From a virus: DNA of 64,000 bases. Location of the stretch: IMG/VR virus record IMGVR_UViG_3300025861_000007; one strand, given 5' to 3'. The number at the start of each line of letters is the position of its first letter. Positions within the stretch are counted from its first letter, which is position 1. Below, piece after piece: positions 10,211-63,158 of the stretch. The position numbers were made by a program, and so were the translations under genes. Under the pieces are notes generated by a model. That model saw only the letters and a list, made by a program, of their open reading frames with translations. It was not told the DNA's origin and ran no database searches.

Positions 10211-11329
10211 ATGAGTAAAGTATTTTTAGAGTACATTTGGCTTGATGGTAATAAACCTCAAAAACTTCGAAGTAAAACTAAGGTGGTTAATGAGACTGAT
10301 ATCATTAATGCTGAAATTAAAGATTATCCACTATGGAGTTTTGATGGTAGTTCTACTAAACAAGCCGGTGATGAAGAATATGGTTTTAAAGGTACCGATT
10401 GTGTATTAAAACCTGTCTACATTGTTCCTGATCCCTTTAGAGAAAAAGGTCAACACAAATTAGTTTTATGTGAAGTTTACAATCCAGATGGTAAAACACC
10501 TCACAAAACAAACACAAGAAGTAAGTTAACAGAACTACTTAAAGAACTTAAGTTCAAAGAATATGATGCTAATTTAAAAGAAGTTCCTTGGTTTGGGTGG
10601 GAACAAGAATACATCATTACACACCCAGCAAACCAATCATCCCCATTTCAATTCGACGGGGGAATCCCATTAGGCTTTAACGCAAATCAAGAACACCCTA
10701 GACCACAAGGTGATTACTACTGTGGTGTTGGTGGATTAAATGTTATCGGCCGTGAAATAGTTGAGGAACATTTAAAAAAATGTGCTCAAATTGGGTTAAG
10801 TATTGGAGGTATTAATGCAGAAGTTTTAATAGGTCAGTGGGAATACCAAATTGGCCCTGTTACCGCTATTAATGGTTCCGACCAATTATGGATTTCACGT
10901 TATATTCTACAAAGAATTGCTGAAAACTATGGATTTGACATATCTTATCACCCAAAACCTGTTAAAGGTGATTGGAATGGTAGTGGATGTCACGTTAATT
11001 TCTCAACCAAAGAGATGAGAGAAAAAGGTGGACTTAAAAAAATATTAGAAGCGTGTGAAAAACTAGCGGAAAGACATAAAGAACATATCGATGTCTACGG
11101 TGAAGAAAATCATCTACGATTAACTGGTAAACATGAGACTTCTAGTATAGAAAAGTTCAGTTTTGGTAATTCTGATAGGGGTTCTAGTGTGAGAATTCCT
11201 GTACATACTTACACAAATGAAAAGGGTTATTTTGAAGATAGAAGGCCGGCAGCTAACTGTGACCCATATAAAGTTTCATTGGTGATGATTGAAACCGTAT
11301 TCGATAAAGCCGGTATAACAGTACAATAA
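10211..11329 (+). CDS. glnII: Glutamine synthetase type II
   Basis: EYIWLDG, WSFDGSST, WFGWEQEY, GINAEV..GQWEYQIGP, PKPVKGDWNGSGCHVNFST, RLTGKHET, GYFEDRRP; 372 aa. Confidence 0.95.
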   Translation: MSKVFLEYIWLDGNKPQKLRSKTKVVNETDIINAEIKDYPLWSFDGSSTKQAGDEEYGFKGTDCVLKPVYIVPDPFREKGQHKLVLCEVYNPDGKTPHKTNTRSKLTELLKELKFKEYDANLKEVPWFGWEQEYIITHPANQSSPFQFDGGIPLGFNANQEHPRPQGDYYCGVGGLNVIGREIVEEHLKKCAQIGLSIGGINAEVLIGQWEYQIGPVTAINGSDQLWISRYILQRIAENYGFDISYHPKPVKGDWNGSGCHVNFSTKEMREKGGLKKILEACEKLAERHKEHIDVYGEENHLRLTGKHETSSIEKFSFGNSDRGSSVRIPVHTYTNEKGYFEDRRPAANCDPYKVSLVMIETVFDKAGITVQ

Positions 11330-12500: not shown

Positions 12501-13823
12501 TTAAAACGAGATTTCTTCTAACTTACCTTCCACTTCAAAAGGGAATATTGGAATCCACTCCGTTATCTCATTGGCCATAGCTGGTTTACCACCTTCTTTT
12601 CTGTTTATAGCAATAGTGATATGTGGGTCTCTATTTTTAGTTACGAATTGAGTTTCAACTTTAACAGCAACCACCTTATCAGTATAACCAATATGTGTAA
12701 CCAACAAATCAAATGACTGTCCTAATAATGGTCTATATTCTTCCTTAAGAGGCCCCATATTGATTGTCATATGATGAGCTAATAACTCCCATTCACCCTT
12801 TCTTAAGGCCTTTTTTAGGTCTTTATCTGTAATTGCGTTATCAAAAATATAATTCATCATTTCAGTTTTAGTTTTGTTTGTTAAAACAATACCTGAATAA
12901 GCAATTTTTCTTTTTGATTCACTCATTATCTTTTGGAATTTTTCTTTCTCTAACCTATCTTTTTCAATACCAATTTCTTTACCCTTAAATCCTAACTTCA
13001 TTAATTCATCACCAGAAGTGGTAATACGATATCTTAAAAATGAATCAATTAACTTGTTTGGTAATCCCATGAACTGACCAAATGTTTTTAATGTTTCATC
13101 TTTCATTCTAATAGTATCAAACCTTTCACGTAATTTATAATGTGAACCACTTATTGTTTGATAGAATTTTATTAAGAAAGCAATCTCTCTCGCTTCTTCA
13201 GAAGTATACTTAAGATTGTTAACTAATGTTCTTTCAACCAATGTAGGGTCGTTACTTCTCAATAAAGAAGCTATAAGTACGATTGGATCCTTCGTCTCAA
13301 TCAAAGGTTCTGTTGATACAACTAACCTACCAAATATCCAATCCCAAAGGTTGTATTTAGTAATTAATTGAATGAAATAACCTACAGATTGTGATTGTTT
13401 AATACCTTTAATAAATTCATCCCTAATTCTTTCTTGAGATAATGAAAGACCATTCCCACTTACTGGCGTTTTATCTTTCTTTATTGCATTTTGTATATCT
13501 TCATCTAATTCGGAACCTACACGGGCAGCAAATCTAAACGCTCTAAGTATACGTAATTTATCTTCATCGAATCTCTCAGATGCTGAACCAACAGTACGAA
13601 CTACGTTTCTTTCAAGGTCACCAATACCACCAACTAAGTCAACTACTTCACCTTTATCGATATCATAGAAAAGAGCATTGATGGTTAAATCTCTACGTAA
13701 AACGTCTTGGTCTATTGAAGTAAATTCAACAGAATCAGGTCTTCTACCTGAACCAGTAAATTTCATGAATTCACTATACTCTTTAGGTAGTAATTCTTTA
13801 GCTATTTGTTCCCAGTTTTCCAT
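12501..13823 (-). CDS. cca: CCA-adding tRNA nucleotidyltransferase, C-terminal piece, fused to a 2H phosphoesterase
   Basis: GSGRRPDSVEF, RRDLTINALFYD, RFDEDKLRILRAFRFAAR; C-terminal HHMTI...PHITI pair. Confidence 0.85.
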   Translation of the reverse strand: MENWEQIAKELLPKEYSEFMKFTGSGRRPDSVEFTSIDQDVLRRDLTINALFYDIDKGEVVDLVGGIGDLERNVVRTVGSASERFDEDKLRILRAFRFAARVGSELDEDIQNAIKKDKTPVSGNGLSLSQERIRDEFIKGIKQSQSVGYFIQLITKYNLWDWIFGRLVVSTEPLIETKDPIVLIASLLRSNDPTLVERTLVNNLKYTSEEAREIAFLIKFYQTISGSHYKLRERFDTIRMKDETLKTFGQFMGLPNKLIDSFLRYRITTSGDELMKLGFKGKEIGIEKDRLEKEKFQKIMSESKRKIAYSGIVLTNKTKTEMMNYIFDNAITDKDLKKALRKGEWELLAHHMTINMGPLKEEYRPLLGQSFDLLVTHIGYTDKVVAVKVETQFVTKNRDPHITIAINRKEGGKPAMANEITEWIPIFPFEVEGKLEEISF

Positions 13824-14031
13824 TTTTATCTTGTTTAATAATTATATGTGAAGACCATCTATGTGGGAAACTACCAAAAGTGGCTAATTCACACTTTGTA
13901 TCTTCACTATATTCTTCAATAGTTTTATCTATTATATTACGTAATTCAATTAACGAACCCTCAAAGTTAAAAGTTCCATTAATAGTTAAATCACCATCTC
14001 TATTTATATAGGTTGTTTTATTTTCGTTCAT
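13798..14031 (-). CDS. Small hypothetical protein inside the cca insertion
   Basis: MNENKTTY start overlaps the endonuclease stop; 3' end overlaps the cca C-half start. Confidence 0.55.
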   Translation of the reverse strand: MNENKTTYINRDGDLTINGTFNFEGSLIELRNIIDKTIEEYSEDTKCELATFGSFPHRWSSHIIIKQDKNGKLGTNS

Positions 14032-14702
14032 TTTAATTTCCATTTATAACCACCACATTTATTTCTATTACCATTTATTACTGACCAAATATTACCTTGA
14101 CTTAAACCAAGATGTTCGGCAGCGTATTTAGCACTCCTCCACTCTTTTATCACCTTACCTTCTTTATCTAATTGTAAAACTGACTGTGCATTCCAACTCA
14201 CAGTACCCTTTTTACTTTCAGATATTTTTTTCTTTGTTTCTTCACTATGTTTAGATCCCTTATGTCTATTATTACCAATAAGTGATTTACTAATTTTATC
14301 TCTAAATTCTTTAGTCCTCATATGTGACCTATCCATTTTTTTAGAAACCTCAGATATTTTCCTTTTAGCCTCATCACTATGTTTATGACCCATAGAACCT
14401 ACATCACCACCGATTGTTAGATTAGTTAATTTATGTCCGTTATTTTTAAACTCACTAATCCAAAACACCTCACGTTCGTTTAAAATGTATAAATCACATT
14501 CTTCTAAAATTTCTATTTTAACATCGTTTAATAAACCCTTATCTCTTAAACCAATTAACCAGCTATTTTTATGGCTAATACTTTTATCAATATCATTTAA
14601 ATGTCGATATAATCTAACTTTAAGTTTTTGTATAGTTTTACCGATATATCTACATTCATTATTTGTTGGATCTATTAATTTGTAAATGTAACCTTTTTCC
14701 AT
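14028..14702 (-). CDS. GIY-YIG homing endonuclease
   Basis: GYIYKL...RYIGKT, EREVFWI, NUMOD3-like HSDEAKRKISE repeats, C-terminal NUMOD1-like HTH; own ATATTTAT promoter. Confidence 0.9.
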   Translation of the reverse strand: MEKGYIYKLIDPTNNECRYIGKTIQKLKVRLYRHLNDIDKSISHKNSWLIGLRDKGLLNDVKIEILEECDLYILNEREVFWISEFKNNGHKLTNLTIGGDVGSMGHKHSDEAKRKISEVSKKMDRSHMRTKEFRDKISKSLIGNNRHKGSKHSEETKKKISESKKGTVSWNAQSVLQLDKEGKVIKEWRSAKYAAEHLGLSQGNIWSVINGNRNKCGGYKWKLK

Positions 14703-14742
14703 GATATTTTATTTATAAATATCATGATATTTCTGAATGTAG

Positions 14743-15162
14743 TTATTTCATTTTTAGTTTCTCTAAAAATAGTTCATAACTACCGTTATTTAACGTTTTC
14801 AAATACACTAAAAAAGAACTCATACTTTTATCTTTAAAAGATAAATCACGTCTAAAAGTAGCTATTTCATACTGACCATCTTCGGTAACCACGTTAACAA
14901 TAGCAAACTGTTCACCCATATCAATGGTACGATACATACGTAACATAGATTTAACTTTATCTGGTGTTGCATCTGTGGCTAGGTCAAAATCTTTAGGTTG
15001 ATTACCCATTAATAAATCTCTAACAGCTCCACCAACAACGTATAATTCATGACCGTTTTCTTTAAAAATACGATTCATCCTTAATACGGATTCGGGTAAA
15101 TCCATACCTATCTTCTTTCTTACAATTTCCTCTTTCAATAAATTTCTAACCGTGTTCCTCAT
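14743..15162 (-). CDS. cca: CCA-adding tRNA nucleotidyltransferase, N-terminal piece
   Basis: YVVGGAVRDLLMG...KDFDLAT (catalytic DxD), YEIATFRRD, then a non-homologous 33-aa tail. Confidence 0.85.
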   Translation of the reverse strand: MRNTVRNLLKEEIVRKKIGMDLPESVLRMNRIFKENGHELYVVGGAVRDLLMGNQPKDFDLATDATPDKVKSMLRMYRTIDMGEQFAIVNVVTEDGQYEIATFRRDLSFKDKSMSSFLVYLKTLNNGSYELFLEKLKMK

Positions 15163-34809: not shown

Positions 34810-35466
34810 TTAGTTAAACAAGTCTAAACCTTCAAGTTCTTTTATAGTATTAATACTATAATCAGAAGGTATGTGTTGATTAAACGGTTTCTCGATTTTA
34901 ATAGTAATCTTACCCTCAGGTTTTGATTGTAAAATTTCAGGATGGTCTGTAATCATACAGTCTACGTCTTTCCAACAATCAACAGTTGAGGTTGTAAACT
35001 TAAGATTAGGTATCATACAACCAGTTTTTGAGAGAAAGAAAAGTGTTGCTGAAACACCTCTACCGGCTTCACGACTTGTGATAACAAATTCATGTTTACC
35101 TGTACTGAATAAAGCTACATCATTTAAAGTTTGTACTGCCCCATCGATAACTTCATCAGCATAACCGAATATTTCTAAACAACATTTATCGTAAATGAAA
35201 TCTTCTACAGTTATACCGTCATCTTTAACTTCTTGTAACTCAAAAGTTGCATCAGTTTTTATAAATTCTTTCTCATCGAAATTTGGGTTGAATTCGATTT
35301 CTTGACGTACAATTTCTTCTTCTGGAAATTTAACCCACTCTTCTAAATTGTAATCTCTTACAACAATCTCTTCACCGTCTTCTGGGTTAAAGTATTTTGT
35401 GTGTGTTTTTTCTATTTGTCCAAAAAAATCTCTTAACACACCATTAATGGAAACACCTATTTTCAT
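34810..35466 (-). CDS. HAD-like 5'(3')-nucleotidase homologue with degenerate motif I
   Basis: MKIGVSINGVLRDF (DxD replaced by SxN), DCMITDHP, KPFNQ. Confidence 0.65.
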   Translation of the reverse strand: MKIGVSINGVLRDFFGQIEKTHTKYFNPEDGEEIVVRDYNLEEWVKFPEEEIVRQEIEFNPNFDEKEFIKTDATFELQEVKDDGITVEDFIYDKCCLEIFGYADEVIDGAVQTLNDVALFSTGKHEFVITSREAGRGVSATLFFLSKTGCMIPNLKFTTSTVDCWKDVDCMITDHPEILQSKPEGKITIKIEKPFNQHIPSDYSINTIKELEGLDLFN

Positions 35467-46193: not shown

Positions 46194-46837
46194 TATTTTT
46201 TACCTGTTGATCCGAACCCTCCAGTCCCTCTTTCGGTTTCAGACATTTCACTCACTGATTCTAATTCAATCATAGCACCAAAATCATTACTTACTCTAGG
46301 TGCGATAACACCTTGTGCAACTCTCTCACCTTGTTCTATGATTTGTTCTTTATCACTAAGGTTAATCATAATAACTTTGATTTCACCACGATAACCTGTA
46401 TCTACTGTACCTAAAATAGCCATAAGGCCTGTTTTAAATGAATGACCACTACGAGGTCTAATTTGTAACTCGTAACCTGTCGGTAATTCAAAATATAATC
46501 CTGTTGGGATTAAGGTTCTTTCGAGAGGTTTTAAGGTTAGTTTACCACCAACCTCAGATAATTCAGCTCTTAAATCAAAACCTGAATCACCATCTTTTGC
46601 CCAAGTAGGATTCTCATTTTTAGATGTGTTAACAAATTTAATTGGTAATTTGAACGCATCTTTGTCGGCTTTAAATGAATTATTTTTACTATCTAAATCT
46701 TCCATTATTTTAATTAAATTATCTAATTCTTTTGCTTGGTCACCACTTATTACTCCTATGGACTTCAAGTGTTGTAATTCTTTAATGTATTCTTTAATAT
46801 CGTTATTCATTTGAATTGTATTTTTTAATAATTTCAA
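46193..46837 (-). CDS. dut: dUTPase
   Basis: SGFDLRA, QIRPRSG, GTVDTGYRGEI, RGTGGFGSTG. Confidence 0.93.
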   Translation of the reverse strand: MKLLKNTIQMNNDIKEYIKELQHLKSIGVISGDQAKELDNLIKIMEDLDSKNNSFKADKDAFKLPIKFVNTSKNENPTWAKDGDSGFDLRAELSEVGGKLTLKPLERTLIPTGLYFELPTGYELQIRPRSGHSFKTGLMAILGTVDTGYRGEIKVIMINLSDKEQIIEQGERVAQGVIAPRVSNDFGAMIELESVSEMSETERGTGGFGSTGKK

Positions 46838-47540
46838 TTGTTAGTTTTATTTCATTTTCACAATACTCAACAACCTTATCAATTTCATTATTCCAATAAT
46901 AATGAGAAATTTTATCACCCTCAATAGTTGACTCATTTTCTATACCTAATAGATTAGCAACCATAGTTAATGAACTGAAACTTTTGAAACCACCGAAAGT
47001 CCAAACATCCCTTGTATCTAGAGCTTTAATCTCCCAAGGTTTAGTTTCATGAGTTGGTAATAGTACTGGTGGTTTTAATCCGTTAATTAGATAACGTTTT
47101 CCTAAATAAGGGATGTCGAAATTTTTAATATTATGACCACATAATGTATATTTCTGTGATGCTTTATCTAATACAGCTCTAACTTTCAATAAAATGTCTT
47201 TTTCATCACCTCTAAAGGTTGATACTTTAACATTCCCCTCATTATCAAGGGCACCTAAACTCACACAGATAATTTTACCAAATTCTGGATAAATACCTGC
47301 ACATTTTTCATATAGAAAATTAGAATCTATTCTACCGTTCTCTATCCCACTTTTATATTCAGGAAATCTGTCAGCAAAAGAAAACCTACTATCACTAAAA
47401 ATTTTAGCAATAATAGGGTTCTTGGATTCTAAATCTGAAAATGATTTTTCTTGTGAAGCAGTTGCTATTTCAATAAACAACAACTTATTTAAGTCAAAAT
47501 TTGATTCTTCTAATGTACTTGTTTTACTTATTTTTAACAT
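46803..47540 (-). CDS. PolB-related 3'-5' exonuclease homologue with degenerate active site
   Basis: YPEFGKIICVS, GHNIKNFDIPY, KPWE..LDT; ExoI reads FIEIATA, ExoIII reads YCENE. Confidence 0.7.
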   Translation of the reverse strand: MLKISKTSTLEESNFDLNKLLFIEIATASQEKSFSDLESKNPIIAKIFSDSRFSFADRFPEYKSGIENGRIDSNFLYEKCAGIYPEFGKIICVSLGALDNEGNVKVSTFRGDEKDILLKVRAVLDKASQKYTLCGHNIKNFDIPYLGKRYLINGLKPPVLLPTHETKPWEIKALDTRDVWTFGGFKSFSSLTMVANLLGIENESTIEGDKISHYYWNNEIDKVVEYCENEIKLTIEIIKKYNSNE

Positions 47541-47689: not shown

Positions 47690-48373
47690 TTATAACATTA
47701 AGTCATTATTAGGTGTTTTAATTATCCATTTAATTTTTTGTTTTTCTGATATTTTATTTTTAGCGTTTTCTGTATGTCTATATTTTTTATTCTTTTCTGA
47801 TAAAATTTTTTTAGATTTTTCTGTATGAGATTTACCCTTCATCCAAGGTGTTTGACCTTTTTTAGATACACTAATTTTATTTTTAGTCTCTTGTGATAGT
47901 CCCCTACCTTTTATAGAGTGTGGTTTACCTTTTTTGGATTCACTGATTTTTTTCTTGGTTTCTTCAGATAACGGTTTTAATTTTCTATTTTTTAATTTTT
48001 TACTAATTTTTTTCTTAGTCTCTTCTGAGATTATAACAATTTTACCTTTATTAGATTTACTAATTTTATTTTTAGTATCTTCTGAATGTTTTTTCCCTAA
48101 CATAGGTGAACCACCATCACCGCCGTTAGATATGTTATACCCTATTTTAGGGTTTTGTGAGTTAAGTTTTTCTATCCAAAATGTTTCACGTTCATTTAAT
48201 TTTTTACGTGTATCACAATACTCAATTATCTCTTTTTTAAAATTTTCTATACCATATTTTTTTATAGCTCTTTTTAATTTTATTCCAGAACCTAAGTATT
48301 TTGGGTTGTTTTTGACATCCTTGCCAATATAAAATTTATTATTCAATAAATTAGTTGTTTTATATATAACCAT
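47690..48373 (-). CDS. GIY-YIG homing endonuclease (probable +1 frameshift near 3' end, extension to 47572)
   Basis: MVIYKTTN..NNKFYIGK, YLGSG, ERETFWI, repeated SEETKKKISE. Confidence 0.88.
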   Translation of the reverse strand: MVIYKTTNLLNNKFYIGKDVKNNPKYLGSGIKLKRAIKKYGIENFKKEIIEYCDTRKKLNERETFWIEKLNSQNPKIGYNISNGGDGGSPMLGKKHSEDTKNKISKSNKGKIVIISEETKKKISKKLKNRKLKPLSEETKKKISESKKGKPHSIKGRGLSQETKNKISVSKKGQTPWMKGKSHTEKSKKILSEKNKKYRHTENAKNKISEKQKIKWIIKTPNNDLML

Positions 48374-48414: not shown

Positions 48415-49740
48415 TTACCTAAAATTATTAATTTCTTCTGTCAATTTTTTGACATTTTTTTCATTACTGGTCATGATTTGTTTATACCAAGAAGCTCTTG
48501 TTTTGGTTACAACATCGATATGATATTTTTTAACAACAGTATCATAAAGATTTTGACCCATTCTTTCAACCATATGTGGGTTTTTCTCTAAAAATTTAAT
48601 GGCTTTAAACCAATCTTTATGATTCTTAGTTGAATCGACAAGGATTGCATTACCATTCTCATTTATTGTACCACCATACTCAATTACATTGACTAAATCA
48701 ATAGTGTATGGTCCAAAGTTCTGTGCAATTAAGGCTTTCTTGTGGAAACCAGCCTCGATAACTTTAAGTTGGGATTTACACTTATTAAAGATATGGTCCT
48801 TAATTGGTGCCAACGAAATATCGAACATATTATAGTTTGAGGCGTATGTTGTAATCGGTTTAGTCCACACTCTTCTATAATTTTCGTTATTGTCTTTATA
48901 TTCATTATCTTCATCCTGATTGTATTTCAACAAATGTTTTTTATATTCAGGACTGATAATTTTATAATTGTCGGTAAACATTTCTTCATAACGACACCAA
49001 ACACTTTCTTGTGGTAAAATCTTTCTTGTTCTTTGTTCACCTGTTTGTGGGTTTGTTTCTGTGATATTACCTCTTAAGTCAAAACCACAAAGAACTAATT
49101 GTGAATCCTCACCTTGAGGTGAATGCATCCATTGATTCAAACCTTGTCTAACAAGTTCTAAGTCTCTTAAGTGGGAAGAACCACCTAACCAACCAATTCT
49201 CATTTTTTTATTACTGATAACTTCTTTCTTTTGGAACTGTTCTTCAGATGGGTCAATAGCGTTAGGAATTACAACAACATTTTTATTGAACTTAGATATT
49301 TCTTGAGCGAATATTTTAGTAGTCGTTGTTACATAATCAACAACCTTTAAATTGGCTTTAATTTTTTCATCAATTTTAGATTGTTTCAATAATGGGTATG
49401 CTGGGTGATCCATAGTAGGCATCCAATAATCATCTAAATCCATGATTGTGATAATACCCATACCTTTTAATTTATCAAAAATCTTTTTAGCATGTTCATC
49501 ATAAACAGGTTGTAACTGACCATTTACAATGTCACTTACAGTTCTATGGAAATGTACAATATGGAATTGTTTTAAATAGTTATCATCATTCCAATGAACA
49601 CCATCAGTACCTGCTGTTACTATATCAATGAAAAAATCATCAGGAAATAATTCATGTAATTTTAAGTGTGGGTCGACTGACCTAAATTTTGATACCCCAC
49701 TTCTGTCTGAAGGTATTACTAAAACTTTAATTTGACTCAT
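48415..49740 (-). CDS. GT4-like glycosyltransferase
   Basis: IMDLDDYW, VIPNAID, IGWLGGSSH, KSQLKVIEAG. Confidence 0.85.
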   Translation of the reverse strand: MSQIKVLVIPSDRSGVSKFRSVDPHLKLHELFPDDFFIDIVTAGTDGVHWNDDNYLKQFHIVHFHRTVSDIVNGQLQPVYDEHAKKIFDKLKGMGIITIMDLDDYWMPTMDHPAYPLLKQSKIDEKIKANLKVVDYVTTTTKIFAQEISKFNKNVVVIPNAIDPSEEQFQKKEVISNKKMRIGWLGGSSHLRDLELVRQGLNQWMHSPQGEDSQLVLCGFDLRGNITETNPQTGEQRTRKILPQESVWCRYEEMFTDNYKIISPEYKKHLLKYNQDEDNEYKDNNENYRRVWTKPITTYASNYNMFDISLAPIKDHIFNKCKSQLKVIEAGFHKKALIAQNFGPYTIDLVNVIEYGGTINENGNAILVDSTKNHKDWFKAIKFLEKNPHMVERMGQNLYDTVVKKYHIDVVTKTRASWYKQIMTSNEKNVKKLTEEINNFR

Positions 49741-49903: not shown

Positions 49904-50557
49904 TTATCCTTTTCTCTTTGGCATTGGCATTACGGTACCAGAAAAGATAGTGTTACCTGCCTTAAATTGAACATTTTCTTTAACCAAACGAGATTCAAAG
50001 TAGTGTTCGATAATTTTAGGGAGAGCCTTTGTTATTTCTGAAGCTATTAACTTTCTTAAATATTTTTCGTCAACATTAACTGGTTCAGATATTTGTTCTT
50101 GAATTACCCTCTTTTTTTGTGTTTGTGTTCTTCTTACGGGTTTTTCGTACATATCAATCTCATCTTCCTCACTGTAAGTTGAATGATTTTCTCTAACATC
50201 ACCTCTTAATTCTCTAATAGCATCTTCATCTACATCCATTCCCATAAAATCTGGTTGTGGGATTGGGTTTTCTAACATTGCCTTTTGAATTGCTGGAGGT
50301 AATTTACAACTTGTAACTCTTTGATTGTACATCTCAGAGCCGACATCTTTTTTAATTGATGTTACATTCTCCGATACCATCATGTTACCACCTGAATGTG
50401 CCATACCAGCTTCTTCTGCGGTAATTAATTTAGTACCATCGATTTGATCGTATAGACCTGCTGATTTCGATTTTTTGGGTGCCCCGTTATCAAACTTTTC
50501 AGCTGCCTTATCTATTTGTTTGGCCTTTTTTAATATTTCTAATAATTTTGGATCCAT
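49904..50557 (-). CDS. Hypothetical protein
   Basis: 217-aa ORF. Confidence 0.7.
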   Translation of the reverse strand: MDPKLLEILKKAKQIDKAAEKFDNGAPKKSKSAGLYDQIDGTKLITAEEAGMAHSGGNMMVSENVTSIKKDVGSEMYNQRVTSCKLPPAIQKAMLENPIPQPDFMGMDVDEDAIRELRGDVRENHSTYSEEDEIDMYEKPVRRTQTQKKRVIQEQISEPVNVDEKYLRKLIASEITKALPKIIEHYFESRLVKENVQFKAGNTIFSGTVMPMPKRKG

Positions 50558-50943
50558 TAAAACCTTGCTTGTTTATATATTGTTATCATACTTCTATCAC
50601 CTCTAGGGTTATATTTCGGTATATTTCTTACTCTGTCTGAAATTGGTGTTCTAAAAGGTAGTTCTCCAGTTTCATCCCAATCTAATATTCTATCCAATCT
50701 AAAAGTTTTCCATCCTGGTTGTTCAGTATCGGTAACACCTTTATATTGGTAGGCACGTAAAATTGGGTTGCCTGCAAGTGATAGTCCTAGTACATAGGGT
50801 TCAATAAATCTCTCCCCTGGTGCTTCAACCTCATCACCACCATAATTTATTCTAACACGGTTATGGTTTGTGATTGCTCTCTCCACTTCTGACCTGTAGG
50901 CAGCTTCTAAAATAATCTCATTTAGAAGAGAGTAAAGTTTCAT
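50557..50943 (-). CDS. Stand-alone WYL-domain protein
   Basis: Likely start MKLYSLLNEIILEA; INYGG...RFIEPYVLG...LRAY...WKTFRLDRI. Confidence 0.75.
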   Translation of the reverse strand: MKLYSLLNEIILEAAYRSEVERAITNHNRVRINYGGDEVEAPGERFIEPYVLGLSLAGNPILRAYQYKGVTDTEQPGWKTFRLDRILDWDETGELPFRTPISDRVRNIPKYNPRGDRSMITIYKQARF

Positions 50944-50944
50944 T

Positions 50945-51295
50945 TTACCAATGTTGTTCAGGATAGTTTTTATCGTAGTAACCCATACCTGGTTTATATT
51001 TGTTACCAGATGAATAAACAAGTGTGTTTTTAGTCATGATATCAGTCTTAGTACCAACCTGATTATTCATTTCACCACGTCCATGTTCATCCATGTTACT
51101 TAAAGCGTTAAGGTGTTGAGCACCATATCTATCATTATCATTATCCTTATAATCATTAAGGACAGTTAATTTTAGACGTTCAACATCAGCTGTTTGCTTT
51201 AAACTAGGTAATTGGTTTAAAACACCACCTGGTCCCATATCCTGAACACTAGCGTTGTCAGTAAGAACTGGTGAAATTACTTGTCTGTGTGCCAT
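50945..51295 (-). CDS. Hypothetical protein
   Basis: 116-aa ORF. Confidence 0.65.
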   Translation of the reverse strand: MAHRQVISPVLTDNASVQDMGPGGVLNQLPSLKQTADVERLKLTVLNDYKDNDNDRYGAQHLNALSNMDEHGRGEMNNQVGTKTDIMTKNTLVYSSGNKYKPGMGYYDKNYPEQHW

Positions 51296-52599: not shown

Positions 52600-55425
52600 T
52601 TATTGGTTTTCTTGAATTTCAGGAATTTCTTTAAAACGGTCTCTAATCATATACTCGGAAGAGATACCCTTACTTCTCCAAAATTCAACCTCACCATCAC
52701 TCATAGTCATTAATTCTTCAAGTGTATCTTGGTCTTCAGGATTTGTTGGAATACCACCTACTAATTCTAATTCTTTTGAAGTGAAGAATTGTTTTAACTC
52801 AGGATTATCGATGATTAACGATTCTCTAACGTGGAGTGGGAATACAACCAATAAAGGTTCTACTTTCTTGTTGAAAGCTTCAATATATTTTGGAACATTA
52901 TAGTCACCGGTTAAATCAGGATTCTTTTTAATTTGTTCTTCTGTAATTAAATAACAATTAAATTTAAGTTCCCCTTCAGGTGTTTTTTTAGTTTTACTAA
53001 AAGATATATCCGCGTGTGACTTACGAGTACCATTATTAACGTAATATAAAGTGTCCCCTAAATTAACATGTACTTGGTCACGAATAATTAATTCCATGTG
53101 TGCTTGTCTAGGTAAATCTCTACCGTTTTTATCTAAACCTCTTTTAAGGTAAGACTCAACAGTTTTTTTAACCTTTGATTTGTTAGCAATATCAACTAAT
53201 GGGATTTGTTTATTGTAAATTTTCTCTAAATACTCATAATAGAAATCAACAAATTCCTTACCCTTACCGTCTAAAAGTAATCTGATACCTTTAGCTAAGA
53301 ACTTCTCAATATATTTTGGTATGGTTTTACCTTTGATTGTATTACCTGTTAATTTTACTTTACCACCTGGTTTTAAAATGGCGTAATTCTTTCTTGAAAA
53401 GTTTACAGTGGCCTCCATAATATCGTCGATATCAAGACCCATAGCCCCGAACATATATCTTTCATTATATTCAGCAACATCGGCATCAATACCTTCATAG
53501 ACAACATCTTTCTTAACAAAACGATGTAATCCTTTACCTGTATATCTTCTAGTCTCAACATCATCAGGACAAGAGAAGTTAACACCGTCAGTATCTAATA
53601 CTAATGGTTTGTAACCCCTATCCATAAAGAATTTAATCATCAAACGTAAATACTGACGACCTGTACAAGTAATTTGTTCACCAATATCAATATCACCCCA
53701 AGGGAAGATATAAGGAGCGGAAATAGAACCGAAGGCAGAGTTATTTAAAATCTTAATCGGTAATTGTTTTTTATCATACATTGAAGCCATTCTAGCATTA
53801 CCTGCTGCATTAGCCTCATTCATTAACCCTTTATATTTGTTACGAGTATCAGATAGATATTTTAACATAGCTCGTAAAGCACCTGTGATATCACAATCAG
53901 GAAACACTTCATGAGTTAACTGAATCGATGGATAAAGTGATGCGTAGTCAAACTTAGCAACTTTTCTACTATAACCTAAGTTTAATAACCTCGATAAACC
54001 ACCAACGAAATCACGTTTTGGTAACATGTCAGGGAGTGCTAGGTTATTTTCATAAGACCAAGCCATCATCAATAATTTCCACATTGTGGCCGTACCCATT
54101 GTGATTGAACGACCAAATGTTGTTGGTACCAAAGCCGCCGTTAAGAAACCGGCTTGTGTGTAGATATCATCAACTTGTTCGGTTTCTAACAAGTCATCCG
54201 TTAAGTATTCTGTAATTAAAAAACGACCATCAACAACTTCCCATCTATCCTCATAACCATCAATAACAACTATTTCACCTTTTTTATTTTCATGTGTTTT
54301 AGGTTCTGGTTTAATACCATCTAAATCATACCACTGTCCACTTGTTGGGTTATAGTTATAATTTTTATTTTCAACCCACATTCTACCCAATTGAGCACCA
54401 TCTACATATACACGAGTAGGTCTTTCTACTTTTGCTTCTTTTGCAATATATTTCAAACCAGCTTCACGAATATTTGAGTTAAGAGCTTGTGCTTGTCTAA
54501 CTCTGTGTAATGTATCTAAAATATTAGTACCCCACATTACAGTTTGTTCATACTGTTCAAGTTCAGCACCTAATTTTAAACTTGCCTCTTTTCTTTTTAA
54601 ATCAATTAATGGGTGTTTGGTTTTAGCTACCTTGGTAATATCCATTCCAAGAAGTCTTGCTCGACCTAGAATATAATACCAGTCAAAGTTCTCAGAGTTA
54701 TATCCTGTAATAATTGAAACATTACGTTCATGGATAATATCAAAAAACTTTTTAATCATGTTACGTTCACACTCTTCTGAATGTTTCTTCCCATTCTCAT
54801 CGTATGAATCAAGAATTGTACGGAAACCACGGTTATCTTTAATACCTATTAAGAAGATATGTCCTTCTTCTGGGTCTAAAGACGTGGTCTCAATATCGAA
54901 TACTAATTTGTGAACTTCTGTATAATCCTCAAATCCTTTAAACAAACGTTTACCTGTTTGAATCATAAATTGTTCAATAGGTTGTACCATTTGAATTAAG
55001 TCTCTTCTTTTCCAAGGGTCTAATCCACCTCTTTTAAAGAAATTAACTAAATCACGATAAGTACCTGAACTTTTTACTATGAATTTAAAACCCTCTTCAA
55101 GACGTTCATTATCGTCAGTTCTAAGTTTCTCGGTGAAAATACCGTACTTCTTAGCCTCTTTACGCATTTTCTCTACGTCATCACCATAAAATCCACTACC
55201 TCTTAAAGATTTTGTCCATAAGAATGGTGTAAACTTTTGTGTTTTAATCATCTTACCCTTTTTAGGGTCGTCAATAATAGTATAAACTCGGTTGGATTCA
55301 TCTACTGACCAATCGTCTGTTTGGTCAAGTTCTACAGCCACTATATATTTTTCGGAGTCGTGGCCTTCTAAGAACACCTTAATATCTTCAGGTGTTGCCT
55401 GTATAATTTTTTCTTTCTTACTCAT
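52600..55425 (-). CDS. polB: Family B DNA polymerase
   Basis: FDIETT (ExoI), GYNSENFD, FDYASLYPS, KKQLPIKILNNSAFG, LDTDG; no intein seen. Confidence 0.95.
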   Translation of the reverse strand: MSKKEKIIQATPEDIKVFLEGHDSEKYIVAVELDQTDDWSVDESNRVYTIIDDPKKGKMIKTQKFTPFLWTKSLRGSGFYGDDVEKMRKEAKKYGIFTEKLRTDDNERLEEGFKFIVKSSGTYRDLVNFFKRGGLDPWKRRDLIQMVQPIEQFMIQTGKRLFKGFEDYTEVHKLVFDIETTSLDPEEGHIFLIGIKDNRGFRTILDSYDENGKKHSEECERNMIKKFFDIIHERNVSIITGYNSENFDWYYILGRARLLGMDITKVAKTKHPLIDLKRKEASLKLGAELEQYEQTVMWGTNILDTLHRVRQAQALNSNIREAGLKYIAKEAKVERPTRVYVDGAQLGRMWVENKNYNYNPTSGQWYDLDGIKPEPKTHENKKGEIVVIDGYEDRWEVVDGRFLITEYLTDDLLETEQVDDIYTQAGFLTAALVPTTFGRSITMGTATMWKLLMMAWSYENNLALPDMLPKRDFVGGLSRLLNLGYSRKVAKFDYASLYPSIQLTHEVFPDCDITGALRAMLKYLSDTRNKYKGLMNEANAAGNARMASMYDKKQLPIKILNNSAFGSISAPYIFPWGDIDIGEQITCTGRQYLRLMIKFFMDRGYKPLVLDTDGVNFSCPDDVETRRYTGKGLHRFVKKDVVYEGIDADVAEYNERYMFGAMGLDIDDIMEATVNFSRKNYAILKPGGKVKLTGNTIKGKTIPKYIEKFLAKGIRLLLDGKGKEFVDFYYEYLEKIYNKQIPLVDIANKSKVKKTVESYLKRGLDKNGRDLPRQAHMELIIRDQVHVNLGDTLYYVNNGTRKSHADISFSKTKKTPEGELKFNCYLITEEQIKKNPDLTGDYNVPKYIEAFNKKVEPLLVVFPLHVRESLIIDNPELKQFFTSKELELVGGIPTNPEDQDTLEELMTMSDGEVEFWRSKGISSEYMIRDRFKEIPEIQENQ

Positions 55426-62404: not shown

Positions 62405-62444
62405 AAATTTTGTCCTAATCAGTATGCCCACATATTTATATAAT

Positions 62445-63158
62445 ATGAAAGGTGTGTACTTAATTAAAAATATTAAAACAGGAAAAGTCTATATTGGTTC
62501 TAGTATTAAGTTAGAGGCTAGGGAACAAAGACACTTTAAAAATTTAATAGATGGTAATCACCATTCTAATAAATTACAAAATTCATATAATAAATACGGT
62601 AAAGATTTTTTTATTTTTGAATCTATTGAAGAGTATGAAGAAATAGATAACAATAAGTTAATTCAAAGGGAACAATATTGGATTGATTATTATAACAGTT
62701 ACAATAATGGTTATAATTGTAGACCTAAAGCTGAAAATAATTATGGACATGAACACTCTGAAGAAACTAAAAAATTAATGTCTAAATTACATAGCGGTAA
62801 AAATAATGCTATGTATGGTAGGAAATTATCTGAAGAAACTAAAGAAAAAATTAGACAAAAGATGTTGGGGAGATTTGTTAGTGAAGAAACTAAAGAAAAA
62901 AAGAGAAAGATTGCGTTAAATAGAAAACACTCTAAAAAAACTAAACTTAAACAAAGTAGAATTAAAAAATCAAAACCAATATTACAATTAGATAAAAATT
63001 TTAAGATAGTGAAAGAGTGGTATTCTAAACGTGAGCCTTTACGTGAATTGGGTGTTAGAGTAGATTACGTGGTTAAAAGTAAAAATAAATTTTCTAAGGG
63101 TTTCTATTGGGTATATAAAAATGAATATGAATTATTTTTTAAAAATAGAACTAATTAA
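62445..63158 (+). CDS. GIY-YIG homing endonuclease
   Basis: MKGVYLIKN..TGKVYIGSS, REQYWID, NUMOD3 repeats; ATATTTAT at 62432. Confidence 0.9.
   Translation: MKGVYLIKNIKTGKVYIGSSIKLEAREQRHFKNLIDGNHHSNKLQNSYNKYGKDFFIFESIEEYEEIDNNKLIQREQYWIDYYNSYNNGYNCRPKAENNYGHEHSEETKKLMSKLHSGKNNAMYGRKLSEETKEKIRQKMLGRFVSEETKEKKRKIALNRKHSKKTKLKQSRIKKSKPILQLDKNFKIVKEWYSKREPLRELGVRVDYVVKSKNKFSKGFYWVYKNEYELFFKNRTN

Follow-up and report, generated by a model that had tools for sequence, protein, structure and literature searches.

A predicted CNPase-like mini-2H domain on a CCA-type tRNA nucleotidyltransferase that is encoded in two pieces by an uncultured T4-like phage

The described system closest in function to the one considered here is the Cca protein of Escherichia coli, a class II nucleotidyltransferase with an HD phosphohydrolase domain (NF008137), in which, as here, a nucleotidyltransferase and an esterase capable of acting on cyclic phosphates are encoded by one gene, and which follows the same logic of healing the tRNA 3' end and then rebuilding CCA. 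Yakunin and colleagues are said to have described it in 2004 as a multifunctional addition and repair protein. In eukaryotic quality control, as opposed to a phage function, the same order of events is divided between separate proteins: ELAC1, a metallo-beta-lactamase homologue of RNase Z, removes the cyclic phosphate at N73 of tRNAs cut by ANKZF1/Vms1 and TRNT1 then adds CCA (PMC10275265). CNPase and the Trl1 healing module (a P-loop kinase with a 2H domain, PF08302) are the nearest relatives in structure, and Acb1, which acts against the cyclic oligonucleotide-based antiphage signaling system (CBASS; 7t27, PF23474), is likewise a small 2H enzyme of phages. A survey of jumbo phages names CCA enzymes and 2H esterases among their repair components, each on its own and without mention of the two being fused (Iyer et al., PMC7824862); a full-text literature search found no description of a CCA-2H fusion, the main 2016 survey of RNA repair lying outside its coverage. 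Here we analyze a 64,000-nucleotide stretch of the IMG/VR virus record IMGVR_UViG_3300025861_000007 (the window), in which an open reading frame (ORF) at 12501..13823 on the minus strand encodes the larger part of a CCA-type nucleotidyltransferase followed by a domain that we call mini-2H.

The ORF encodes 440 amino acids (aa), the last 138 or so of which hold two HxT motifs. The mini-2H domain extends over 12504..12917(-), about residues 303-440, as judged from an AlphaFold (AF2) model, Foldseek, VIA-align and a weak match to the Pfam family tRNA_lig_CPD, and the stop codon of the ORF lies at 12501..12503(-). The first catalytic-type motif, H351-M-T353 within LAHHMTINM, is at 12765..12773(-) and the second, H401-I-T403 within DPHITIAINR, is at 12615..12623(-), both being recognized by their conservation in relatives. 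They are separated by exactly 50 residues, are the only two H-x-[TS] motifs in the ORF and are each followed by a hydrophobic residue (H351-M-T-I and H401-I-T-I), as is characteristic of the 2H superfamily. When the last 141 aa were shuffled 20,000 times, two or more HxT-hydrophobic motifs arose in only 104 cases (0.5%). In an alignment of 53 relatives, T353, H401 and T403 (A1 columns T64, H112 and T114) are invariant, and H350 and H351 (A1 H61/H62), M352 and a GGKPxMSN loop that comes after the second motif are at least 90% conserved; neither motif varies at any of its residues among 35 full-length CCA fusions. An earlier note on this DNA had described the motifs as HHMTI and PHITI about 50 aa apart in a domain at 12501-12926, and the motifs, their spacing and the extent of the domain all held up, the first strand of the model starting at about residue 307. 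Its remark that an HD motif is lacking was also borne out, as the 440-aa ORF contains no HD dipeptide and has no match to a Pfam HD domain at E ≤ 0.1.

The AF2 model of the domain, built with the 53-sequence alignment as input, had a predicted local distance difference test (pLDDT) value of 95.9 and a predicted template modeling (pTM) score of 0.86, and shows strands and helices in alternation. Foldseek returned 46 matches in the Protein Data Bank (PDB) at E ≤ 1e-3, nearly all of which were the catalytic domain of mouse or human CNPase (best E 1.1e-5); goldfish RICH and Pyrococcus LigT came next. VIA-align, which is independent of Foldseek and compared the model with 48,161 representative chains by structural alignment, also placed mouse CNPase (2xmi) at the top, with Z 13.1 and a root-mean-square deviation (rmsd) of 2.8 Å over 134 of 151 residues at 15% identity. 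All 2H families other than CNPase fell at Z 4.5-6.6, including the Burkholderia phage phosphodiesterase, LigT, the Deinococcus cyclic phosphodiesterase (CPDase), MHV ns2, AKAP18 and rotavirus VP3. The best matches among predicted viral structures (BFVD) were RNA ligases of giant viruses and uncharacterized proteins, entries for Acb1 being weaker. The only related Pfam profile was PF08302 (tRNA_lig_CPD, the cyclic phosphodiesterase of fungal tRNA ligase), which matched residues 345-422 with E 1.1e-3 and 18.9 bits, below its cut-off of 23 bits, and rose above that cut-off in relatives (31 bits in P0141, 33 bits in P0212 and 27.3 bits in another). PHROGs and NCBIfam hold no family for the domain, and searches of PDB sequences with the domain alone and with the 53-sequence profile gave nothing meaningful, so that comparison of folds alone was informative. 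Because the motifs are intact and because Foldseek and VIA-align, starting from the AF2 model, return 2H proteins almost exclusively, we take the domain to be a 2H fold, as the earlier note had proposed. On this predicted structure it is a genuine, unusually small 2H fold that is nearest to the CNPase/Trl1-CPD branch. It differs from CNPase in its length (about 125-138 aa vs. about 210 aa, or about 40% smaller), in the spacing of its HxT motifs (50 residues vs. about 80) and in its partner, which is a CCA enzyme rather than the kinase or ligase of CNPase and Trl1.

The same comparisons bear on two other activities known for 2H enzymes. The domain might degrade a signal, in the manner of Acb1 against CBASS and cyclic oligoadenylate or of an Appr>p esterase, its fusion to a CCA enzyme then being incidental. 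Acb1 is similar in size, and the model aligned to Acb1 (7t27) with Z 6.5, to the Arabidopsis Appr>p CPDase with Z 6.6 and, in BFVD, to Acb1 with E of about 2e-3; however, the Z score for CNPase was twice as high, the Pfam Acb1 profile (PF23474) did not match the domain, and in multidomain relatives the Acb1 and LigT profiles matched a separate, neighboring second 2H domain that coexists with mini-2H in the larger proteins. The recurrent partners of mini-2H, which are CCA enzymes and enzymes resembling polynucleotide kinase and are unlike those of Acb1, also point to RNA ends, and we regard a signal-degrading role as quite improbable. Alternatively, mini-2H could be a 3' trimming exoribonuclease like Usb1 that removes A-rich trailers from pre-tRNAs and exposes the discriminator base. 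Usb1 is a 2H enzyme (Z 5.7), and the tRNA genes of a related phage, G002, are separated by spacers of 4-6 nucleotides (nt), nearly all of them A-rich, that need to be removed. The match to Usb1 is nevertheless far weaker than that to CNPase, host exonucleases could do the trimming, and partners with kinase and HAD domains fit the healing of ends better, which makes trimming very improbable.

The domain company of mini-2H was characterized by searching its last 151 residues against 1.84 billion representative proteins (E ≤ 1e-3). The family comprises 971 clusters at 50% identity, and the best 150 of the 971 representatives are mostly stand-alone proteins of about 120-180 aa. In the best 120 clusters at 90% identity with protein lengths of 242-770 aa, the CCA head domain (PF01743) was present in 65 and a P-loop kinase (PF13671, AAA_33) in 41, with the remainder including NT5C-type HAD fusions and fragments; the fusion, whose frequency the earlier note had left to a survey, recurs in several architectures. 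The combination of a kinase with 2H in 41 of the 120 clusters is the healing layout of CNPase and Trl1, which supports a role at RNA ends. Forty longer relatives contained PF08302 in 20 cases (E ≤ 1e-3), CCA domains in 15-16, HAD_SAK_1 in five and HAD_PNKP in one, and eight had a second, LigT-type 2H domain, seven of which also matched Acb1; others of the forty carried GNAT or ART-PolyVal domains. Individual architectures include 2H + CCA + HAD (P0214), CCA + mini-2H + LigT-type 2H (P0164) and NT5C + mini-2H (P0067 and P0141). Five giant proteins of 1450-2332 aa (P0144, P0243, P0197, P0212 and P0170) have a CCA enzyme and then a C-terminal mini-2H, with a LigT/Acb1-type 2H domain between the two in four of the five, and this CCA/2H block lies behind GNAT, NleE-like or ART-PolyVal domains. 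Since mini-2H can be N-terminal to the CCA enzyme, C-terminal to it or further downstream, the association is not a single accident. Deposited phages in INPHARED had no CCA-2H fusion, their CCA matches ending at about residue 300, and mini-2H was found there only as a stand-alone "hypothetical protein" of crAss-like Bacteroides phages. The patterns HHMTI[NK][ML]G and [VIK]PHIT[IV]AVN, when searched in 185,579 species genomes, gave three stand-alone copies only, all in metagenome-assembled genomes. Another tool set built on a CCA enzyme was seen in a 995-aa phage protein (L019, 8618-11605), in which a CCA enzyme is combined with a cytidylyltransferase-like domain, a HAD-like DxDxT domain and, at the C-terminus, an HExxH motif; the next ORF contains DMDGVL, a motif like that of NT5C.

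The remainder of the ORF, residues 24-302 (12918..13754(-)), is the C-terminal part of a CCA-type nucleotidyltransferase and consists of the end of the head domain (RRD), the neck (EDxxR), the body and the tail. It matched positions 69-296 of the tRNA nucleotidyltransferase family phrog_2244 (E 1.6e-34), and the N-terminus of the ORF matched positions 74-126, the second half of the head domain, of Pfam PolyA_pol. The head domain begins on an upstream ORF of 139 aa at 14743..15162(-), whose residues 1-106 run from GGAVRD through DFD to ATFRRD (Pfam, PHROG, NCBIfam and alignment) and which matched positions 2-71 of phrog_2244 in a PHROG search; the catalytic DxD is on this N-half. Motifs A to E of class II CCA enzymes are therefore all intact and are divided between two ORFs, with GGAVRD and DFD on the N-half and RRDLTINA, DEDKLR and ERIRDEF on the C-half, and the GGxVRD, DxD, RRD, EDxxR and ERxxxE motifs are invariant in the alignment of the 35 full-length fusions. 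The enzyme could instead be a poly(A) polymerase or some other RNA-tailing enzyme. The NCBIfam match of the C-half to CCA tRNA nucleotidyltransferase was below the family cut-off, and an intact homologue (P0007) scored 191 bits with the CCA family NF009814 (cut-off 290) and 184 bits with the PcnB family TIGR01942 (cut-off 306), two values that are close and both below cut-off. On the other hand, tRNA nucleotidyltransferases give the top match in both PHROGs and NCBIfam, RRD and EDxxR are invariant, and the related phage G002 carries many tRNA genes that lack CCA, and an RNA-tailing enzyme of another kind is scarcely probable.

In the predicted structures a flexible linker connects mini-2H with the body and tail of the nucleotidyltransferase, a class II enzyme of the CCA type that has no HD domain. 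In the full-length AF2 model (pTM 0.46) the linker, at 387-392, is of low confidence or disordered and the orientation of the domains is unreadable. The earlier note had taken the 2H domain to stand in place of an HD domain. The HD domain is indeed absent, but the idea of a replacement did not survive comparison with a related 309-kb phage genome (G003), whose CCA enzyme has no 2H domain, ends with ...ELFKELL exactly where the 2H domain of the window starts and has nothing in its stead, which argues that the 2H domain is an addition rather than a swap. In E. coli Cca the HD domain lies within the body, whereas here a metal-independent 2H fold comes after the tail; in addition, the protein of the window has no evident 2'-nucleotidase or phosphatase activity, as predicted from sequence, and is in two pieces. 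Scores for the E. coli-type Cca family NF008137 were only 65-88 bits (cut-off 451), and its matches covered the nucleotidyltransferase part alone. By its sequence, the protein would work like E. coli Cca without being a member of that family, as the defining HD feature is missing.

Free-standing homing endonucleases are known to split genes of T4-like phages, as mobE does in nrdA of phage Aeh1. The CCA gene of the window resembles that case in that a GIY-YIG gene lies between the two halves of the enzyme, each of which has its own start and stop, and differs from it in the target, a CCA enzyme, and in that the cassette brings conserved, complementary peptides. The whole mobile cassette, including co-converted exon ends, extends over 13734..14859(-). 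It contains, in the direction of transcription, a foreign tail of 33 aa on the N-half followed by a stop (14844..14746(-), by alignment to unsplit homologues), a homing endonuclease gene at 14028..14702(-) with GIY-YIG, NUMOD3 and I-HmuI NUMOD-like domains (Pfam and PHROG), an 81-aa ORF at 13798..14043(-) with no Pfam or PHROG match, and a foreign head peptide of 23 aa at the start of the C-half (13755..13823(-), MENWEQIAKELLPKEYSEFMKFT), which is absent from unsplit homologues and is followed by GSGRRPD. Unsplit homologues of 507-523 aa run across the break point as ...EIATFRKDIGKGRRPDSVEF.... The cassette, about 1.13 kb long, has only three mismatches (99.6% identity) to its counterpart in a second phage contig, L005 (3686-5150), which shares the recoded TFRRD end, the 33-aa tail, the GIY-YIG gene, the 81-aa ORF and an identical 23-aa head peptide, whereas identity falls to about 75% in the CCA coding sequence that flanks it. 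This difference in identity marks the cassette as recently mobile, by homing with short co-conversion tracts at the exon ends. A degenerate second copy of the target lies at 14720-14742(-), directly after the stop of the N-half. It reads approximately E-I-T-T-F-R-N-I, much like the EIATFRKDI found at this site in genes that have not been interrupted, and is a scar left by the origin of the cassette.

Several observations bear on whether the two halves are made as separate proteins. In G003 (L023, 9974-11498) the CCA gene is split at the same site, the endonuclease gene is absent and a gap of 196 nt remains; its tail (...DDFVKFIRAKGPEYEKRLRLFI...) and head (MTWQKIAKEIFPEEFKQFERLNGRRPD) peptides resemble those of the window in protein but not in DNA. 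As this split gene without a homing endonuclease gene keeps the peptides at the protein level only, the foreign tail and head are likely to be translated. Rfam searches found no intron at E ≤ 1 over 3.6 kb or at E ≤ 10 over the 3' part of the cassette region, and RNA folding of the cassette flanks gave unremarkable z-scores of -1.9 and -3.2. Prediction of a complex between the N-half and the C-half gave an interaction prediction score from aligned errors (ipSAE) of 0.72, compared with 0.01 for the best control, a level attained in 51 of 78 solved complexes but in just two of 108 mismatched pairs; the score may partly echo memory of solved structures of intact CCA enzymes. Separate runs shared at least 89% of contacts and the pLDDT of the partners was at least 82. 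Both foreign peptides take part in the predicted interface, as residues 4-25 of the C-half and residues 112-139 of the N-half, with the 23-aa head set against the 33-aa tail. We therefore favor, with good though not full confidence, a two-subunit enzyme over a protein restored by intron splicing. The description of the enzyme as one protein, which the earlier note had offered, applies to the many intact homologues but not to this phage, where the head domain with its DxD is on the separate 139-aa ORF.

Healing of RNA 3' ends coupled to CCA addition is suggested by the predicted fold, by motifs that are intact and by the recurrent association of mini-2H with enzymes for mending or rebuilding the ends of RNA. 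In the mechanism that we propose, a metal-independent ribonuclease would cut the 3' end of a tRNA and leave a 2',3'-cyclic phosphate, mini-2H would hydrolyze the cyclic phosphate and free the 3'-OH, its fusion to the CCA enzyme would direct it to tRNA acceptor ends, and the nucleotidyltransferase of the same assembly would rebuild CCA. Precedents speak for this scheme: an immune nuclease that clips tRNA tails is known (Cas12a3, PMC12851939), and in the ELAC1-TRNT1 pathway CCA is added once a cyclic phosphate has been taken off (PMC10275265). In this phage the machine would consist of two subunits, with the 33-aa tail and the 23-aa head peptide contributed by the cassette allowing the halves to reassemble. 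What we observe here is the presence and conservation of the motifs, the fold as predicted, the partner domains and the splitting of the gene; we infer from them the substrate (tRNA ending in a cyclic phosphate, tRNA>p), the product, a coupling with the addition of CCA and the purpose that the enzyme serves. We consider it slightly better than an even chance that mini-2H is a motif-intact 2H domain of the CNPase/tRNA-ligase-CPD type that heals tRNA>p on a CCA enzyme before CCA is rebuilt. The heal-and-rebuild reading of the earlier note is upheld to the extent that a predicted 2H fold is present on a CCA enzyme and keeps company with partners that heal RNA ends, and is weakened by the nature of the expected product.

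That product is the first of several points that weigh against the proposed mechanism. CNPase and Trl1-CPD leave ends with a 2'-PO4 and a 3'-OH, and such a 2'-phosphate end may need an extra dephosphorylation before CCA can be extended. Relatives that add a HAD phosphatase suggest that the 2'-phosphate usually has to go, but a phosphomonoesterase is missing from the window protein, and a search for Tpt1 (PF01885) in four related records (G002-G005) found none. The full-length model, with its low pTM and low-confidence linker, gives no sign of active sites that cooperate; the 2H domain is absent from G003, which has over 50 tRNA genes; and NCBIfam, as shown by the nearly equal scores of P0007, does not separate CCA-adding enzymes from poly(A) polymerases. 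In addition, the fold is predicted and the enzymatic role is deduced from it. The source of the damage also matters here. Cas12a3 is an immune nuclease that clips tRNA 3' tails by means of its RuvC site (PMC12851939). A RuvC cut should leave 3'-OH ends, for which 2H would not be needed. A clipper that leaves cyclic phosphates, such as one of the HEPN type, would fit better than Cas12a3.

A candidate for a phosphatase acting in trans was sought in the window. The NT5C-like HAD ORF at 34810..35466(-) was rejected in this role: its score of 22.6 bits is below cut-off, S-I-N stands in the place of its catalytic DxD motif, and it shows no genuine resemblance to the NT5C portions of the mini-2H fusions. 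It probably lacks phosphatase activity. The genes around this ORF, in a block at about 29-45 kb, encode glycosyltransferases and enzymes of sugar modification. No other genes resembling RNA repair genes were seen in the 64-kb window. Among the four related records an Rnl1-type ligase was found solely in G005, and G002 had weak RNA_ligase matches only.

The phage of the window and its relatives, whose contigs reach 310-318 kb, are T4-like jumbo phages with the Gp23 capsid protein, a T4 portal protein and an S77 prohead protease. In the window and in the relatives examined, the CCA gene always lies between the prohead protease and a glutamine-synthetase-like gene. The latter gene (Gln-synt_N/C, 10211-11329(+) in the window) is inside the structural module and syntenic in all of the relatives examined. 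The window itself contains no tRNA genes. The relative G002 (318 kb, 96% complete), which has a single copy of the CCA-2H fusion, carries 22 tRNA genes according to ARAGORN, with 24 Rfam matches above cut-off (L030, G002:C1:2300-22000); they are arranged in tight arrays, and about 18 of the 22 do not encode CCA.

These tRNA genes make it conceivable that the enzyme is a housekeeping one, which adds CCA to the CCA-less tRNAs of the phage itself while the 2H domain tidies up the occasional cyclic-phosphate end that arises in processing or turnover. Maturation of T4 tRNAs depends on CCA addition, and the gene is in a conserved position in the structural module, not in a defense island. However, RNase P, RNase Z and exonucleases leave 3'-OH ends, so that a 2H domain would not be called for in maturation; the domain is missing from G003, although that phage is richer in tRNAs; and polyvalent proteins with ART, GNAT and NleE-like domains carry the same module, which suggests a role in conflict. 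We consider the housekeeping explanation unlikely but still a serious contender. The counter-defense role put forward in the earlier note had been an inference, and in light of the 22 tRNA genes of G002, about 18 of them without CCA, plain maturation is a live alternative to it. Repair of nuclease damage, and hence counter-defense, is in our assessment somewhat ahead of routine maturation of phage tRNAs as the purpose of the enzyme. More tentatively, and with the odds somewhat against it, mini-2H and CCA may form a widespread, undescribed counter-defense module of phages, in which mini-2H opens the cyclic phosphate and which mends tRNA tails cut by metal-independent immune RNases such as HEPN-type toxins, one that is valued enough to have been kept working in two pieces after invasion by a homing endonuclease and to have been built into giant polyvalent proteins.

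Two further GIY-YIG/NUMOD3 endonuclease genes are present in the window, at 47690-48373(-) and 62424-63158(+). The first lies between a 441-aa ORF without a Pfam match (48415-49740) and a 245-aa ORF resembling a PolB exonuclease (46803-47540), and these two ORFs may represent a second split gene; the window's main DNA polymerase, of family B, is encoded at 52600-55425. A small WYL-domain protein (50557-51021(-)) adjoins the DNA polymerase region.

With 971 clusters and a length of about 125 aa, mini-2H may be the smallest family of 2H enzymes, and it has no name in current annotation. The proposed mechanism poses the biochemical question of whether a CCA enzyme accepts an end of the CNPase type, with a 2'-phosphate and a 3'-OH. 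Interest in immune systems that disable tRNAs is growing fast, and one demonstrated strategy is to clip the tRNA at its 3' tail (Cas12a3, PMC12851939). The known answer to a CCA end that is damaged and has a blocked terminus is the CCA/HD enzyme of E. coli. If the reading given here is true, the CCA-2H enzyme would be a second, unrelated solution to damaged CCA ends, and one that is common in uncultured phages.

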